From NCBI GenBank assembly GCA_951406725.2, contig OX597824.1, positions 15,190,001-15,254,000 of the forward strand: 64,000 nucleotides of DNA, written 5' to 3'. The stretch's first letter is position 1. The number at the start of each line of letters is the position of its first letter. Origin of the DNA: Octopus vulgaris. Its lineage: Eukaryota. Below the pieces are notes generated by a model that was not told the origin of the DNA, searched no databases, and worked only from the letters and a program-made list of their open reading frames with translations. Shown here in pieces: positions 6,999 through 59,758 of this stretch. A program made the translations under genes and the position numbers.

Positions 6999-7573
6999 TG
7001 GCGAGCTGGCAGAAACGTTAGCATGCCGGGTGAAATGCTTAGCAATATTTCGTCTGCCGCTACGTTCTGAGTTCAAATTCCGCCGAGGTCGACTTTGCAT
7101 TTCATCCTTTCGGGGTCGATTAAATAAGTACCAGTTACGCACTGGGGTCGATATAATCGACTTAATCCCTTTGTCTGTCCTTGTTCGTCCCCTCTGTGTT
7201 TAGCCCCTTGTGGGTAGTAAAGAAATAGGTATTTCATCTGCCGCTACGTTCTGAGTTCAAATTCCACCGAGGTCGACTTTGCCTTTCATCCTTTCGGGGT
7301 CGATTAAATAAGTACCAGTTACGCACTGGGGTCGATATAATCGACTTAATCCGTTTGTCTGTCCTTGTTTGTCCTCTCTGTGTTTAGCCCCTTGTGGGTA
7401 GTAAAGAAATAGGTTTTTCGTCTGCCGCTACGTTCTGAGTTCAAATTCCGCCGAGGTCGACTGTGCCTTTCATCCTTTCGGGGTCGATAAATTAAGTACC
7501 AGTTGCGTACTGCGGTCGACTGGCTTCCTCCCCCAAAATTTCGGGCTTTGTGCCTAGAGTAGAAAAGAATATT
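6999..7573 (+). mobile_element. SINE family B array: head, two 184-bp tail-1 units, final unit with tail-2
   Basis: A box TGGCAGAAACG, B box GAGTTCAAATTC, Meta-domain-like GGTCGACTTTGCCTTTCATCCTTTCGGGGTCGAT..AAGTACCAG. Unit starts at 7046, 7230 and 7414. Confidence 0.9.
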
Positions 7574-7942: not shown

Positions 7943-8266
7943 CTATTTCTTTACTACCCACAAGGGGCTTAACACAGAGAGGACAAACAAGGACAGACAA
8001 ACGGATTAAGTCGATTATATCGACCCCAGTGCGTAACTGGTACTTTTTTAATCGACCCCGAAAGGATGTAAGGCAAAGTCGACGTCGGCGGAATTTGAAC
8101 TCAGAACGTAACGGCAGGCGACATACCTATTTCTTTACTACCCACAAGGGGCTAAACAGAGAGGACAAACAAGGACAGACAAAGGGATTAAGTCGATTAC
8201 ATCGACCCCAGTGCGTAACTGGTACTTTTTTAATCGACCCCGAAAGGATGAAAGGCAAAGTCGACC
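7943..8266 (-). mobile_element. SINE family B, two tandem units, headless
   Basis: Same unit and GAAATA|GGTA junction as the array at 6999-7573. Confidence 0.85.
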
Positions 8267-8616
8267 GGAAAACCGGGTCCATGAGCCTGGCTAGGGTTGA
8301 AAAGGGCGACGTTTATCGGTTGTTTTTTTTTTATCCTCAGAGCGGTGTAAAAAACAAAAGTCGATCATGGCAGGATTTGAGCTCAAAACGCAAACGGTCT
8401 CGTAACCAAATACCGAAAGGAACTTTTGACATCCGTTACTCTACTAATTCTACCAACACACCACCGCTATTATATTTGTCTGCACTCTACTAACTCTGTC
8501 ATACACCGCCCTACACACCACAAAAATGCGCTCAGTTTTCAGTATTTCATTCATCATTGTCAAATGCACACACACACACACGCACGCACACACACACACA
8601 TTCAGATATGTATATA

Positions 8617-11489: not shown

Positions 11490-11857
11490 TTATTTCTTTA
11501 CTACCCACAAGAGGCTAAACACAGAGGGGACAAACAAGGACAGACAAAGGGATTAAGTCGATTACATCGAGCCCAGTGCGAAACTGGTACTTTATTTATC
11601 GACCCCGGACTCGGCGGAATTTGAACTCAGAACGTAACGGCAGACGAAATACCTATTTCTTTATTACCCACAAGGGGCTAAACACAGAGGGGACAAACAA
11701 GGACAGACATAGGTATTAAGTCGATTACATCGACCCCAGTGCGTAACTGGTACTTAATTTGAAAGGCAAAGTCGACCTCAGCGGAATTTGAACTCACAAC
11801 GTAACGCAGACGAAATACCGCTAAGCATTTCGCCCGGCGTGCTAACGTTTCTGCCAG
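11490..11857 (-). mobile_element. SINE family B, head plus two units with internal deletions
   Basis: GAAATACC|TATTTCTTT junction near 11655. Head at 11820-11857. Confidence 0.85.
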
Positions 11858-21353: not shown

Positions 21354-21540
21354 GGCGGCGAGCTGGTAGAAACGTTAGTACGTTTTTCGTCCTTACGTTA
21401 TGAGTTCAAATTCCGCCGAGGTCGACTTTGCCTTTCATCCTTTCAGGGTCGATAAATTAAGTACCGGTTGCGTACTGGGGTCGATCTAATCGACTGGCAC
21501 CCTCCCACCAAATTTCGGGCCTTGTGCCTAGAGTAGAAAA
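21354..21540 (+). mobile_element. SINE family B (tail-2) with 16-bp TSD
   Basis: TATTCTTGCCCTTTTC at 21336-21351 and 21541-21556. Confidence 0.9.
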
Positions 21541-21637
21541 TATTCTTGCCCTTTTCTCCTATTCTACACTTGATCACTATTTTTTATTGACTGCCTTTGG
21601 TAATTTCACGTGTACACACTCTTCCATAACAATTACG

Positions 21638-23869: not shown

Positions 23870-24290
23870 GGCGGCGAGTTGGCAGAAACGTTAGCACGCC
23901 GGGCGAAATGCGTAGCTATATTTCGTCTGCCGTTACGTTCCGAGTTCAAATTCCGCCGAGGTCGACTTTGCCTTTCATACTGTCGGGGTCGATTAAATAA
24001 GTACCAGTTACGCACTGGGGTCGATGTAATCGACTTAACCCGTTTGTCTGTCCATGTTTGTCCCCTCTGTGTTTAGCCCCTTGTGGGTAATAAAGAAATA
24101 GGTATTTCGTCTGCCGTTACGTTCTGAGTTCAAATTCCGCCGAGGTCGACTTTGCCTTTCATCCTTTCGGGGTCGATTAAATGAAGTACCAGTTACGCAT
24201 TGGGGTCGATGTAATCGACTTAATCCGTTTGTCTGTCCCATGTTTGTACCCTCTGTGTTTAGCCCCTTGTGGGTAGTTAAGAAATAGGTA
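23870..24290 (+). mobile_element. SINE family B, head plus two 184-bp units
   Basis: Junction AAAGAAATA|GGTATTTCG at 24100/24101. Confidence 0.9.
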
Positions 24291-26920: not shown

Positions 26921-27521
26921 TATTTCTTTACTGCCCACAAGGGAGCTAAACACAGAGGGGATAAACAAGGACGGACAAACGGATTAAGTCGATTATATTG
27001 ACCCCAGTGCGTAAATGGTACTTATTTAATCGACCCTGAAAGGATGAAAGGCAAAGTCGACCTCGGTGGAATTTTAACTCAGAACGTAACGGCAGACGAA
27101 ATACCTATTTCTTTACTACCCACAAGGGGCTAAACACAGAGGGTATAAACAAGGACAGACAAACGGATTAAGTCGATTATATCGACCCCAGTGCGTAACT
27201 GGTACTTAATTTATCGACCTCGAAAGGATGAAAGGCAAAGTCGATCTCGGCGGAATTTGAACTCAGAACGTAGCGGCAGACGAAATACCTATTTCTTTAT
27301 TACCCACAATGGGCTAAACACAGAGGGGACAAACAAGGACAGAAAAACGGATTAAGTCGATTATATCGACCCCATTGCGTAACTGGTACTTATTTAATCG
27401 ACCCCGAAAGGAAGGAAGGCAAAGTCGACCTCGGTGGAATTTGAACTCAGAACGTAACGGCAGACGAAATACCGCTAAGCATTTCGCCCGGTGTGCTAAC
27501 GTTTCTGCCAGCTCGCCGCCT
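26921..27521 (-). mobile_element. SINE family B, head plus three ~184-bp units
   Basis: Units 26921-27105, 27106-27289 and 27290-27473; head to 27521. Confidence 0.92.
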
Positions 27522-31339: not shown

Positions 31340-31567
31340 GGCGAGCTGGCAGAAACGTTAGCACGCCGGGAGAAATGCGTAGCCGTATTTCGTCTGGCGT
31401 TACGTTCTGAGTTCAAATTTCGCCGAGGTTGACTTTGCCTTTCATCCTTTCGGGGTCGATAAATTAAGTCCCAGTTGCGCACTGGAGTCGATATAATCGA
31501 CTTAATCCGTTTATCTGTCCTTGTTTGTCCCCTCTGTGTTTAGCCCCTTGTGGGTAGTAAAGAAATA
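31340..31567 (+). mobile_element. SINE-B (tail-1) monomer inserted at the tail of a SINE-A (31570-32168, -)
   Basis: TSD TATATCTTTTAC on both sides. Confidence 0.85.
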
Positions 31568-38599: not shown

Positions 38600-39787
38600 C
38601 GACCTCCATTCATCCTGAAAGATGCCTTTCAACTATGTTACAATGCAGGTTTTTTCTCTCCTTAACCTTCCATTTAAAAACATCCGACAAATGTTCTATT
38701 GGGTTTAAATCAGGTGACATGGTAGGCCAAGGCAATACTTTACCTTTTTATCTGATAAAAACTTAGTCGTCATCTTTGAAGTGTGTTTAGGGTCACTATC
38801 GTGTTGAAACGTGGAATGTCTTCCTAGTTCCTTGATACTTTTCAACCTTGTTTTCTGCAATATATTACAACAAAACCTTGAATCCATTGTTCTCTCAATG
38901 TGAGTCCTCCCACACCAGCTGTACTCATGTATCCCCAACCATAACACTTCCTCCACCATGTTTCACGGTAGACTTAGTGCATTTGTCGCTATTATCTTCA
39001 CCTGGCCATCGCCATATTCGTTTAATACCATCTGACCCAAACAAGTTGATTTTAGTCTCGTCAGAAATAACAATTTTATTCCAAAACTCCTTCCCCTTAC
39101 TCACATAGGTCTTGACCAAAGAAAGACGACTTGATTTATGCCTGGTAGTGAGGAGAAGCTTCCTACGAGGAATGCGTCCATGAAGACCACACAGGTTCAA
39201 ACTTCGGTGAACTGTGTGAGTGTGTGTGGATACACTCTTTCCACATTAATAAAGGCGGCGAGTTGGCAGGAACATTAACACGCCGGGCGAAATGCTTAGC
39301 GGTATTTCGTCTGCCGTTACGTTCTGAGTTCAAATTCCGCCGAGGTCGACTTTGCCTTTCATCCTTTCGGGATCGATAAATTAAGTACCAGTTACGCACT
39401 GGGGTCGATGTAATCGACTTAATACCTATGTCTGTCCTTGTTTGTCCCCTCTGTGTTTAGCCCCTTGTGGGTAATAAAGAAATAGGATACACTCTTTCCA
39501 CTAACAGAAGACACTTCTTGGGTCAAAGATGAAGCGGTACGACGCCTATCGTCCATCACACAACGTTGGAGGTGACAAATATCATGCACAGTTAAAATAG
39601 AAGGATGACCTGGACGGTGTTTATTGTTTAGCTGTCCGGTAGCTTTGCAGTTCTGAATTACTTTGGCAACTGTTTTTACGCTAATATGTATTCGTTTCCT
39701 AATTAACTTGTATCCTAAACCATTTTTGTGCAAATTAAAAATAATTTCCTTCAATTCTTCAGACAACTTGTATCCTTTTGGTGCGAT
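38600..39787 (-). pseudogene. Tc1 transposase pseudogene
   Basis: APKGYKLSEELK..GLGYK..RPGHP..GLHGRIPRRK..ISDETKINLFGSDG..TVKHGGGSVMV..FQHDSDPKHTS..WPTMSPDLNPIEH, with frameshifts, a lost ATG and a SINE insertion. Confidence 0.92.
39254..39484 (+). mobile_element. SINE-B (tail-1) monomer with 17-bp TSD inside Tc1
   Basis: GGATACACTCTTTCCAC at 39228-39244 and 39485-39501. Confidence 0.93.
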
Positions 39788-44608: not shown

Positions 44609-44719
44609 CCACTGCGTGGCACCTTGGGCAAGTGTCTTCTACTATAGTCTCGTACCGACCAAAGCTTTGTGAGTGGATTTGGTAAACAGAAACTGAAAGA
44701 AGCCCATCGTATATATATA

Positions 44720-44767
<48 letters not shown>

Positions 44768-44961
44768 TCTCCCGAACATCGCTTGACAACCGATACTGGT
44801 GTGTTTACGTCCCCGTAACTTAGCGGTTCGGCAAAAAGAACCCGATAGAATAAGTACTAGGCTTACAAAAAATAAGTCCTGGGGTCGATTTGCTCGACTA
44901 AAGGCGGTGCTCCAGCATGGCCACAGTGAAATGACTGAAGCAAGTAAAAGATAAAAGAAAA
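44609..44961 (+). mobile_element. SINE family A, 5'-truncated
   Basis: CORE-like segment through tail. Confidence 0.88.
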
Positions 44962-45284
44962 ATTAAAGGTGAAATGGAAAAATGGTTGGATCTCTCGCAT
45001 TTGTTGTGTGACACATATAAGACGTCAATACAGTGGATAAATGGTTGAGGCTGCTTTTTATTTGCTGTTCCAATGATTCGAAGCGAGTCGAATGATCACA
45101 CAACAGACTACTGTTTTTTTGCTGTGAGTATAAAATAAAAATAACTAGCAAAAACAAAAAAGTTTAACTTACACCACTTTTCTGTCGACTGAAGTGAGAC
45201 CAGCCCTTCACGGTACTTAATTTTTAGTACTAAATCGCCTCCTGAGTTTGGTACTTTAAATGATGAAGAATCAAAGGTAACTGG

Positions 45285-45681
45285 TACTCTTTTACTCTTT
45301 TACTTGTTTCAGTCATTTGACTGCGGCCATGCTGGAGCACCGCCCTCAGTCGAGCAATTCGACCCCGGGACTTATTCTTTGTAAGCCCAGTACTTATTCT
45401 ATCGGTCTCTTTTGCCGAACCGCTAAGTGACGGGGACGTAAACACACCAGCATCGGTTGTCAAGCAATGCTAGGGGGACAAACACAACCACACACACATA
45501 CACGCATATATATATATACGATAGGCTTCTTTCAGTTTCCGTCTACCAAATCCACTCACAAAGCATTGGTCGACCCGGGGCTATAGCAGAAGACACTTGC
45601 CCAAGATGCCACGCAGTGGGACTGAACCCGGAACCATGTGGTTGGTAAACAAGCTACTTACCACACAGCCACTCCTGCGCC
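45285..45681 (-). mobile_element. SINE family A, full length
   Basis: Tail TACTCTTT x2 through head ACTCCTGCGCC; CTGGTAC at both flanks. Confidence 0.9.
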
Positions 45682-45807
45682 ACTCCTGGTACATATATAA
45701 AAATAAAAGGTGACTTTTCTCATTTGATATTTCAGGATCTCTGTTCCTCCAATAAACCTACTTTATTGTTACAAGGATCGAGCACGTGATTTGAATTTGT
45801 TTAAGAT

Positions 45808-46163
45808 TATTGGTTTCAGATTTTGGCACAAGGCCTGCAGTTTCAGGAGAGGGAGTGAGTCGATTACATCGACCCAATGTTCGTATGGTACTTATCTCAT
45901 CGATCTCAGCGGAATTTGAACTCAGAACGTAAAGACAAACAAAATACATATTTCTTTACCGCCCATAAGGGGCAAAACACAGAGAGGACAAACAAGGACA
46001 GACAAACGGATTAAGTCGGATATATCGACTCCAGTGCGTAACTAGTACTTATTTAATCGACCCGAAAGGATGAAAGGCAAAGTCGACCTCGGCGGAATTT
46101 GAACTCAGAACGTAACGCTAAGCATTTTGTCCGACACACTAACGATCCTGCCAGCTCGCCGCC
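45808..46163 (-). mobile_element. Old SINE-B split at its head loop by a tail-1 unit (45949-46116)
   Basis: Old-type head ...GGACAAAATGCTTAGC, then tail-1 unit ending GAAATA, then TGTATTTTGTTTG old body with a different tail. Confidence 0.85.
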
Positions 46164-46185
46164 TTAATACTAGAATATAATGTTA

Positions 46186-46362
46186 CGGCGAACTTTTGTT
46201 GTCTTTACGTTCTGAGTTCAAGTTTCGCCAAAGCTTACTTTGCCTTTTATCCTTTCGGTGTCGATAAAATAAATACCAGTTAACCACTAGGGATCGATCT
46301 AATCGACTTACCTCCTCCTTCTCCCCAAATTGCTGGCCTTGTGCCAAAATTCGAAGGCAATA
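46186..46362 (+). mobile_element. Old SINE-B copy
   Basis: B box, Meta-like domain and GGCCTTGTGCCAAAA tail. Confidence 0.75.
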
Positions 46363-46599
46363 TTACTATGTTCACTGTGAGTAGACTCCGACACTGTTGA
46401 CGTCACTGGTTCCAGGCCCTTTAAAACTACTTTACATTAACTCCTTAAACACATTCTGAAGGCCATGAACATCACAGCATCTCAGCTGTCGGTTCGTAGC
46501 TAACTTCTGTCCCCGAAAGAAATATTTGCAGTCGCTTCGTCTTGTCGTCATCACCCGACCGTCTCTTCTTTCTCCCCCTTTCTTCACCCCCAGTTTCTT

Positions 46600-48849: not shown

Positions 48850-48887
<38 letters not shown>

Positions 48888-49114
48888 CTTTACTACCCAC
48901 AAGGGGCTAAACATATAGGGGACAAACAAGGACAGACAAAGGGATTAAATCGATCACATCGACCCCAGTGCGTAACTGGTACTTAATTTATCGACCCCGA
49001 AAGGATTAAAGGCAAAGTCGACCTCGGCGGAATTTGAACTCAGAACACTTAACGGCAGACGGAATACGGCTACGCATTTCGCCCGGCGTGCTAACGTTTC
49101 TGCCAGCTCGCCGC

Positions 49115-49156
<42 letters not shown>

Positions 49157-58704: not shown

Positions 58705-59014
58705 ATGTATATATATATATAAAGACGTTAGAGAGAAAGTTTACGGAAATGTCCGGAATATTGCGGAAAAAGGGAGGGAGGGCAGGATTGAGGCGTTAAA
58801 CGTTTGATTGATATTTTGTTGGGAAAGTCAAGGGTGTGACGACATTGTAGAGAAATTTTACGGGAAAATCCAGAACATGGCGGCCGTTTAAGTGAGCAGA
58901 CGAGAGATGTAAAGTGAGTGGTGTGATTCAGAATTAGATAATATTGGTTTTTAATTTTTAAGGTGGCAAGCTGGCAGAACCATTAGCACTCCAGCCAAAA
59001 AGCTTAGCACCCCC

Positions 59015-59507
59015 AATATTGGTTTTAAATTTTGCAACAAGGATAGAAATTTTATGGGAAGGGGTAAGTCGATTACGTTGATCCGAGTGTTCAACGGGTA
59101 CTTATTCCATTTATCCACAAAAGAATGAAAAGCAAAGTCGTCCTCGGCGGCATTTGAACTCAGAACGTAGCGGCAGACGAAATACCTATTTCTTTACTAC
59201 CCACAAGGGGCTACACACAGAGAGGACAAACAAGGACAGACAAACGGATTAAGTCGATTACATTGACCCCAGTGCGTAACTGGTACTTATTTAATCGACC
59301 CCGAAAGGATGAAAGGCAAAGTCGACCTCGGCGGAATTTGAACTCAGAACGTAGCGGCAGACGAAATACCCATTTCTTTACTACCAACAAGGGGCTAAAC
59401 ACAGAGAGGACAAACAAGGACAGACAAACGGATTAAGTCGATTACATTGACCCCAGTGCGTAACTGGTACTTATTTAATCGACCCCGAAAGGATGAAAGG
59501 CAAAGCG
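59015..59507 (-). mobile_element. SINE-B array: two tail-1 units in front of an old diverged unit
   Basis: Junctions GAAATACC|TATTTC near 59186 and 59370. The 3'-most unit (59015-59185) is heavily diverged and has a different tail. Confidence 0.85.
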
Positions 59508-59758
59508 ACAAATGTTGGGGAGGGAAAAAAACGGTGATTTTAACTCACAGCAATCAATTATTAAACGTTCATAATTGGAATGAATAAATAAAATCGAACA
59601 TTAAGTATTTATGGAATTTTGATTTACTGTCGAGTGACTTTTGGCCAAACTTGTTCCGTTGATCGGATCAACCGGAACCAATGTAAAAACAAGAGGGAAA
59701 AGTCACTTGTTACATCGGGTACGGGACTCGAAAGCCCTCTCAGCTACAAACCATCGAT

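Follow-up and report, generated by a model that had tools for sequence, protein, structure and literature searches.

A younger tail-1 SINE unit inside an older relative in Octopus vulgaris: a SINE with possibly R1-like behaviour

The locus and its SINE family

The stretch of DNA analysed here, hereafter the window, comprises 64,000 nucleotides of Octopus vulgaris (contig OX597824.1 of assembly GCA_951406725.2, positions 15,190,001 to 15,254,000), and all coordinates are counted from its first letter. It contains about 18 loci of one group of short, dispersed, non-coding SINEs, with three kinds of tail, namely tail-1 (ending AAAGAAATA), B and C; full tail-1 matches in the window are found only within copies of this SINE. 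The family, with a common head and body and exchanged tails, presumably resembles the abundant octopus tRNA-derived SINEs. Such octopus SINEs, termed OK, OR1 and OR2, were reportedly described by Ohshima and Okada in 1994. ARAGORN predicted no tRNA genes, the A- and B-box-like words being called by eye only, and Rfam gave no tRNA match at the gathering score, nor at E<=10 on one array.

The features of the window are collected in Table 1, where copies are named by their approximate position in kilobases. At 46k, an old-type head, a tail-1 unit and an old body with a C-type tail follow one another on the minus strand. Relative to the 184-nt array unit, the insert lacks the first 15 nucleotides and one internal G, and CpG decay is seen at none of its 9 sites, while the host body carries an internal deletion of about 29 nucleotides. 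As originally predicted, excision of the insert re-forms a hairpin, the arms ACAAAATGC and GTATTTTGT pairing at 9 of 9 positions (one of them G-T) around the loop TTAGCT. Comparison of the flanks likewise bears out that no TSD is visible, the longest word common to the 40-nt flanks being 6 nucleotides long and lying 31 nucleotides from the head. Other abundant SINE-like repeats, at 44610-44950 and 45280-45680, flank the 46k locus in opposite orientations.

Table 1. SINE features in the 64,000-nucleotide window.
Feature	Position	Strand	Remarks
Old-type tRNA-like SINE head (46k)	46117..46163	-	ends GGACAAAATGCTTAGC at loop TTAGC; 6/41 mismatches at family-wide columns
A-box-like word in 46k head	about 46143-46153	-	called by eye
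5' hairpin arm in 46k head	46122-46130	-	
Younger tail-1 unit (46k insert, 168 nt)	45949..46116	-	starts GTTACG, ends AAAGAAATA; 4/96 mismatches
B-box-like word in 46k insert	46094-46106	-	called by eye
Old body with C-type tail (46k host)	45948 to about 45806	-	begins TGTATTTTGTTTG; 9/75 mismatches
3' hairpin arm in 46k host body	45939-45947	-	
Headless C-type SINE body, opposite orientation	46194..46362	+	30 nt from 46k head
Second old-host composite (59k): two tail-1 units, the first 5'-truncated and the second full, then an old C-type body with donor-type first 17+ nt	59015..59509	-	
Head-only piece	58960..59014	+	ends GCTTAGC, then A and five C; 19-bp direct repeat around it (58940-58958, 59015-59033; 1 mismatch)
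Array, third composite (7k): head followed by two tail-1 units and by a last unit that starts donor-type and has a B-type tail	7000..7572	+	
Array: head and three tail-1 units, mixed subtype	26921..27520	-	
Array: head and two tail-1 units	11491..11857	-	
Array: head and two tail-1 units	23870..24286	+	
Two-unit tail-1 array, 5'-truncated	7944..8266	-	
Solo tail-1 copy	39254..39484	+	17-bp TSD
Solo tail-1 copy	31340..31567	+	12-bp TSD
Solo tail-1 copy within AT microsatellite	48883..49115	-	

TSDs of 12, 14, 15 and 17 bp were found at 4 of the 12 loci examined, and at none of the three composites (46k, 59k and 7k). Since two of the three solo tail-1 copies carry TSDs, of 12 and 17 bp, the family spreads through target-primed reverse transcription. 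A B-type copy on the plus strand at 21354-21541 has a TSD of 15-16 bp and has lost the whole head hairpin. Upstream of the truncated 8k array, a very old head-and-body copy lies together with a piece of another repeat (8267-8470, minus strand), forming a further nested cluster. The head-only piece at 59k, with its direct repeat (58940-59033), interrupts the tail of the 59k composite, which itself has no head. The piece may have come from retroposition of a 5' RNA half, or else it is the head of that composite, displaced. An inversion broken at the loop was given up as an explanation of this arrangement, the 19-bp direct repeat making a separate head-only insertion simpler.

Subtype and age of host and insert

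The 46k composite is a younger tail-1 unit inside an older relative, and the nesting is a real feature; the original prediction in this respect is confirmed by diagnostic sites, by the tree of heads and by an age gap. At both strong diagnostic sites the 46k head is of old type, these being column 19 (T in 4 of 5 old heads, A in 7 of 7 tail-1 heads) and column 36 (A in 4 of 5 old heads, G in 7 of 7 tail-1 heads). At two weaker columns, 3 and 29, where the old majority is 3/4 and 2/5, respectively, it carries the tail-1 letter. Clustering of the head with the insert had been named beforehand as the outcome that would speak against nesting; in the tree the 46k head groups instead with an old head (UFBoot 93; 62 for the whole old-head clade), and the insert is placed among the tail-1 units. 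In the body tree, tail columns were included, and the support of 100 for the split between old and tail-1 bodies mostly reflects the tails.

With regard to age, 4 mismatches were counted over 96 family-wide columns in the insert, versus 15 over 116 in head and last body together (Fisher p=0.02; p=0.052 for the last body alone), with the reservation that such columns may score subfamily changes as decay. The gap is wider in the 59k composite, where the tail-1 unit has 2 mismatches in 103 columns and the C body 16 in 103 (p=4e-4). The corresponding comparison at 7k (9/99) was set aside, as a 9-nt deletion causes misalignment.

Makeup of the arrays

The arrays have a period of 184 nucleotides and consist of units behind one head, with one extended terminal unit; internal heads are present in none of the arrays of the window. 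Units within arrays lie 3.6-7.6% apart and are of mixed subtype. For instance, the first unit of the 11k array diverges by only 1.2% from the solo copy at 39k, but by 6.0% from the unit next to it. Divergence among the three 27k units, at 7.1-7.6%, is that of unrelated units (mean 7.6%, n=128 pairs). Such mosaics argue that the arrays are not plain local duplications. Nevertheless, divergence within arrays averages 5.8% (n=8) versus 7.6% between arrays (n=128; p=0.006), and rare variants are common to the units within 8k and within 59k, so that local duplication, a common multimer master or later unequal exchange explains part of the pattern.

The tail variant GGGTAAT, carried by 4 of the 17 tail-1 units (11654-11819, 23917-24100, 27290-27473 and 39301-39484), occurs only in first array units and one solo copy, as expected if a younger subtype entered upstream or if arrays were copied whole. 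Two simple routes to tandem units were rejected: slippage between the GAAAT words of head and tail, after which GCTTAGC would remain in the junction, and rolling-circle copying of a ribozyme-made circle, given that a ribozyme is absent and the units are mixed.

The likeness within arrays, the shared rare variants and the confinement of the GTAAT variant are also what would be left by an ordinary history with no targeting, composed of a single founder duplication, the copying of entire multimer masters, unequal crossing-over and a later 15-nt deletion at 46k, and SINE-derived tandem repeats and multimers have precedent in passages of PMC10702118. Such a history is very improbable as the whole explanation, in that it accounts neither for a young unit enclosed by old head and old body, nor for the two cases in which a young unit is joined to an old body, nor for the bias in flanking sequence that follows.

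Sequence following tail-1 ends

The original prediction called for a look at the sequence after tail-1 3' ends, which within the window proved enriched for post-loop SINE sequence: it follows 10 of the 17 tail-1 ends versus none of the 9 B or C tails (Fisher p=0.004), the 10 junctions falling in 7 loci, with those in one array not independent events. These 10 flanks match the post-loop body start at 20-25 of 25 letters. All of these counts come from one 64-kb window, with 10 tail-1 loci and 3 composites. All 11 instances of the post-loop word GGTATTTC in the window lie in these SINEs, compared with 7643 TAT sites, and its rarity means that a loose endonuclease preference cannot yield the 10/17 share.

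The seven tail-1 flanks outside arrays match the motif GGTATT, picked post hoc after inspection of the data, at 24 of 42 positions, where 11.4-11.5 are expected (p about 2e-5). The resemblance persists when the two most suspect flanks, 24k and 49k, are left out (16/30, p=0.0015) and when sites preceded by ATA serve as the background (p=8e-4), and is not significant at the two TSD-defined sites alone (5/12, p=0.21). Most of the B and C tails (7572, 9720, 21541, 40219, 43706, 46362 and 59015) run into TAT(T/A), and in the 21.3k and 40k copies with TSDs the target itself begins at TAT(T/A), which suggests a TAT priming preference common to the kinds of tail. Because B and C tails also end at TAT, the GGTATT resemblance may be enzyme preference only.

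The junction point

The break point had been claimed to be the same in all the tandem arrays, and indeed the 10 internal junctions of the window share one register (10/10). The further claim that the 46k insertion lies precisely at the loop can be upheld for the 5' side, which is ambiguous by CG microhomology, but not for the 3' side, where the switch lies anywhere in +0 to +13 because old and tail-1 bodies are indistinguishable over their first 13 nucleotides. Three mismatches in the first 13 nucleotides after the 46k tail-1 favour host origin by about 5:1. From +14 onward the letters are of old type, and the genome-wide consensus of loose ends is of the same old type. With regard to the caveat that the stem covariation could be two independent CpG decays, the change in the 3' arm is indeed of CpG type and is also present in the 22k copy, and the CAAAA of the head arm is a state found in other old heads too. 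With an old-subfamily state in one arm and a CpG-type change in the other, the covariation adds little and was rejected as independent support.

In two of the three composites, 7k and 59k, donor-type letters run at least 17 nucleotides past the junction, their last units beginning with the donor variant GCCGCTACG, as in the tail-1 unit just upstream; the old copies at 21.7k, 22k and 30k start differently. These letters imply that the template already held tail-1 and the start of the next unit. Judged by the letters, the 7k and 59k junctions were probably imported from an array, which points to a common break point that is at least partly inherited, by homology rather than by a fresh loop-specific cut. 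Inheritance alone is argued against by the 46k head and the head-only piece at 59k, which both stop at the loop, which suggests a real break point there, beyond the need of homology alone.

That break point invites a reading in which a LINE endonuclease, or a nuclease acting on hairpins or cruciforms, would cut relatives at the loop, with tail-1 joined afresh and no RNA guide. Besides the 46k head end, the host-like letters after its tail (about 5:1) and the 59k piece that stops at the same loop, this reading would accord with a hairpin of 11-13 bp in folds and with the 21.3k copy that has none. It is nevertheless unlikely, given the donor-type letters beyond two of three junctions, heads whose folding does not surpass that of shuffled sequences (z -0.11 and +0.94) and the 0 of 9 B and C tails that use the site despite seemingly the same TAT preference. 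Thus the prediction that tail-1 preferentially enters the loop of relatives survives as a bias of ends, with 59k as a second old-host composite, and not as a statement that the loop is the cut site each time.

The imported junctions would also be accounted for at the DNA level, if a broken old copy were repaired from a distant array by ectopic conversion or recombination, units and junction being imported with no reverse transcription at this step; composites without TSDs and mosaic arrays would follow as well. This account is rather improbable, since 3 composites among 10 tail-1 loci would seem high for repair between copies about 13-15% apart, since the truncated 5' ends and the joints at microhomology resemble those of retroposition, and since the GGTATT likeness of ordinary flanks is left unexplained.

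Finally, the junctions may have been made in one event on RNA, with the SINE RNA cut in its anticodon-like loop and the reverse transcriptase jumping to a tail-1 3' end, so that mixed arrays would be built before integration. R2 and L1 are known to make template jumps (PMC3414825), and the fixed register, the restriction of the upstream position to tail-1, the complementarity of the tail end GAAATA to the TATTTC just past the loop and the head-only piece with a TSD-like repeat that ends at the loop would all be in keeping with them. At 46k, however, old decayed templates and an out-and-back jump would be required, with a host far more diverged than its insert. In addition, solo 5'-truncated bodies start at +5, +17, +32 and later, and none at +1, and the donor letters inside the last unit would go unexplained, which makes template jumping quite improbable.

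A model for insertion into relatives

For the 46k insert, the preferred reading is arrival by homology-guided target-primed reverse transcription from an array RNA that ran past tail-1 into the next unit, an account with about an even chance of being correct. Since a run of four T is absent from 15 of the 17 units, we infer that arrays would be transcribed through. A partner LINE enzyme would then nick near TAT-containing DNA, the SINE's own post-loop GGTATTTC being one such site, and the RNA extension GGUAUUUCG... would pair with the nicked strand in whichever relative it meets, where priming would succeed far more often. The cDNA would subsequently join the upstream head by homology, creating seamless arrays without internal heads; at 46k, joining may have proceeded via CG microhomology with the loss of 15 nucleotides. 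Each event would place one more headless unit after a head already present and thereby create a new array template, resulting in positive feedback, and some copying within arrays probably contributes too. In favour of this account are the bias of tail-1 ends, the age gaps at 46k and 59k, the mosaic arrays, the donor-type letters at 7k and 59k, the GGTATT likeness of the seven non-array flanks and the TSDs of solo copies. Counted against it are the lack of TSDs at all three composites, the post-junction letters at 46k, which look host-derived, and the head-only piece that ends at the same loop.

Extended to the family, the model describes a self-homing SINE, in which read-through RNA would guide LINE-driven insertion to a fixed point of relatives genome-wide, hijacking their pol III heads and turning dead copies into new tail-1 templates, with a burst as the outcome. 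This extension is put forward tentatively, at somewhat below an even chance.

The usual view of SINEs is that the cuts of the partner LINE decide where they insert. Should RNA-DNA homology bring over half of this family's 3' ends into relatives, a non-coding parasite would have gained target choice without a protein of its own, with other repeats offering it both safe places to land and promoters already in position. Such a process would supply a concrete mechanism for tail swapping between SINE subfamilies and for the origin of SINE-derived tandem repeats, both long noted and unexplained. It also predicts that a general LINE enzyme can be redirected by a long stretch of 3' homology, a point of relevance to tools for RNA-templated gene insertion, and the resulting mosaics would distort repeat libraries and age estimates in these genomes.

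Comparison with known systems

Retrozymes are tandem retroelements with a self-cleaving ribozyme in each unit. Rfam gave no ribozyme match, and the hammerhead core CTGANGA was found on either strand in 0 of 17 units; the absence of a ribozyme from the units separates them from retrozymes. The 184-nt unit has no coding capacity and no reverse transcriptase or endonuclease ORF of its own. Nor is insertion restricted to one target, with 7 of the 17 tail-1 ends lying in other DNA with a partial match only.

The tail-1 SINE works like R1 at best and is not a member of R1/R2. In common with those elements, as described in passages of PMC2718515 and PMC3414825, are tandem arrays at a fixed site, off-target sites that resemble the target (28S for R1, PMC2718515) and 5' joints that are precise or formed by microhomology. 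Passages of PMC2718515 also report that downstream 28S sequence is present in R1 transcripts, and propose its annealing to the nicked target strand, a property that here would follow from read-through. R1 and R2 differ, according to the same passages, in being autonomous, in having a 28S rDNA target with a specific endonuclease, and in array copies separated by TSDs, whereas the tail-1 SINE is non-coding, would target its own family, adds headless units and has solo copies that insert widely.

Similarly, the squamate sSat repeats, in the sections concerned of PMC10702118, are tandem part-SINE repeats of about 150-180 nucleotides with one longer terminal unit that reaches the SINE end. Those repeats are treated as locus-bound, subtelomeric satellites that arose by duplication and unequal recombination, with up to 1000 homogenised units, whereas the tail-1 arrays are dispersed, contain 2-3 units of mixed subtype and terminate in a body that belongs to another, older subfamily. 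Runs of head-to-tail copies are also seen in multimeric SINEs such as Alu and jerboa Dip, as cited in the same sections; these share the arrangement, but consist of full-length monomers added at tails or of fixed dimers; the unit added here is headless and enters internally. For RTE-related SINEs, passages of PMC6007223 describe TSDs of 12-19 bp and a link of the 3' end to the first target letters, as in the present family, and RNA-target pairing at 3' junctions is discussed there for RTE, CR1 and L2.

In the octopus literature, SINEs are given as 11.6% of O. vulgaris (in passages of PMC13282606), and OR2 is listed as a CORE SINE (likewise in passages of PMC4758252 and PMC5804259). No account of such arrays or nesting was found in the portions covered of papers such as PMC13282606, PMC8967140, PMC4758252, PMC5804259, PMC3531059 and PMC3414825. 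A self-targeting SINE was likewise found in none of the literature searched, where subscription papers and Repbase reports were thinly covered and may hold an earlier description of the arrays.

Copies and the locus in other sequence data

Pattern scans outside the window returned 0 and 0 hits in metagenomes, 16 and 0 in viral contigs and 120 in prokaryote genomes, and none of the 136 matched the SINE by blastn. In each of three sequencing runs, more than 125,000 contigs match the SINE. Runs with this stretch came from 5 organisms, and the search for orthologues covered 4 of the 24 at a likeness of 85, of which one raw-read run gave 7 reads only and was left out. Contigs of one organism (D) are identical to the window over 45700-45831 and 46140-46265, and in a paralogue a tail-1 junction is spanned by another of its contigs, which covers 45911-46018 with 15 changes.

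In a second organism (C), the right flank at 46379-46568 is present with 15 changes and 1 gap in 190 positions (about 92% identity), and the headless C-type body at 46194-46362 is probably at its orthologous site. Tail-1 sequence is present in this organism as well. The joint of 46117 to 45948 is absent among the 15 joints listed of 1429, and no listed piece spans the locus. A C reading of 79-93% at 45948 was rejected as evidence for an empty site, ordinary monomers having the same letter.

The depth of tail-1 relative to the shared core (bins 45980-46009 versus 46070-46099), which is not equivalent to copy number, reaches about 0.41 in organism D compared with about 0.11 in organism C, a difference that hints at a tail-1 burst in one lineage.
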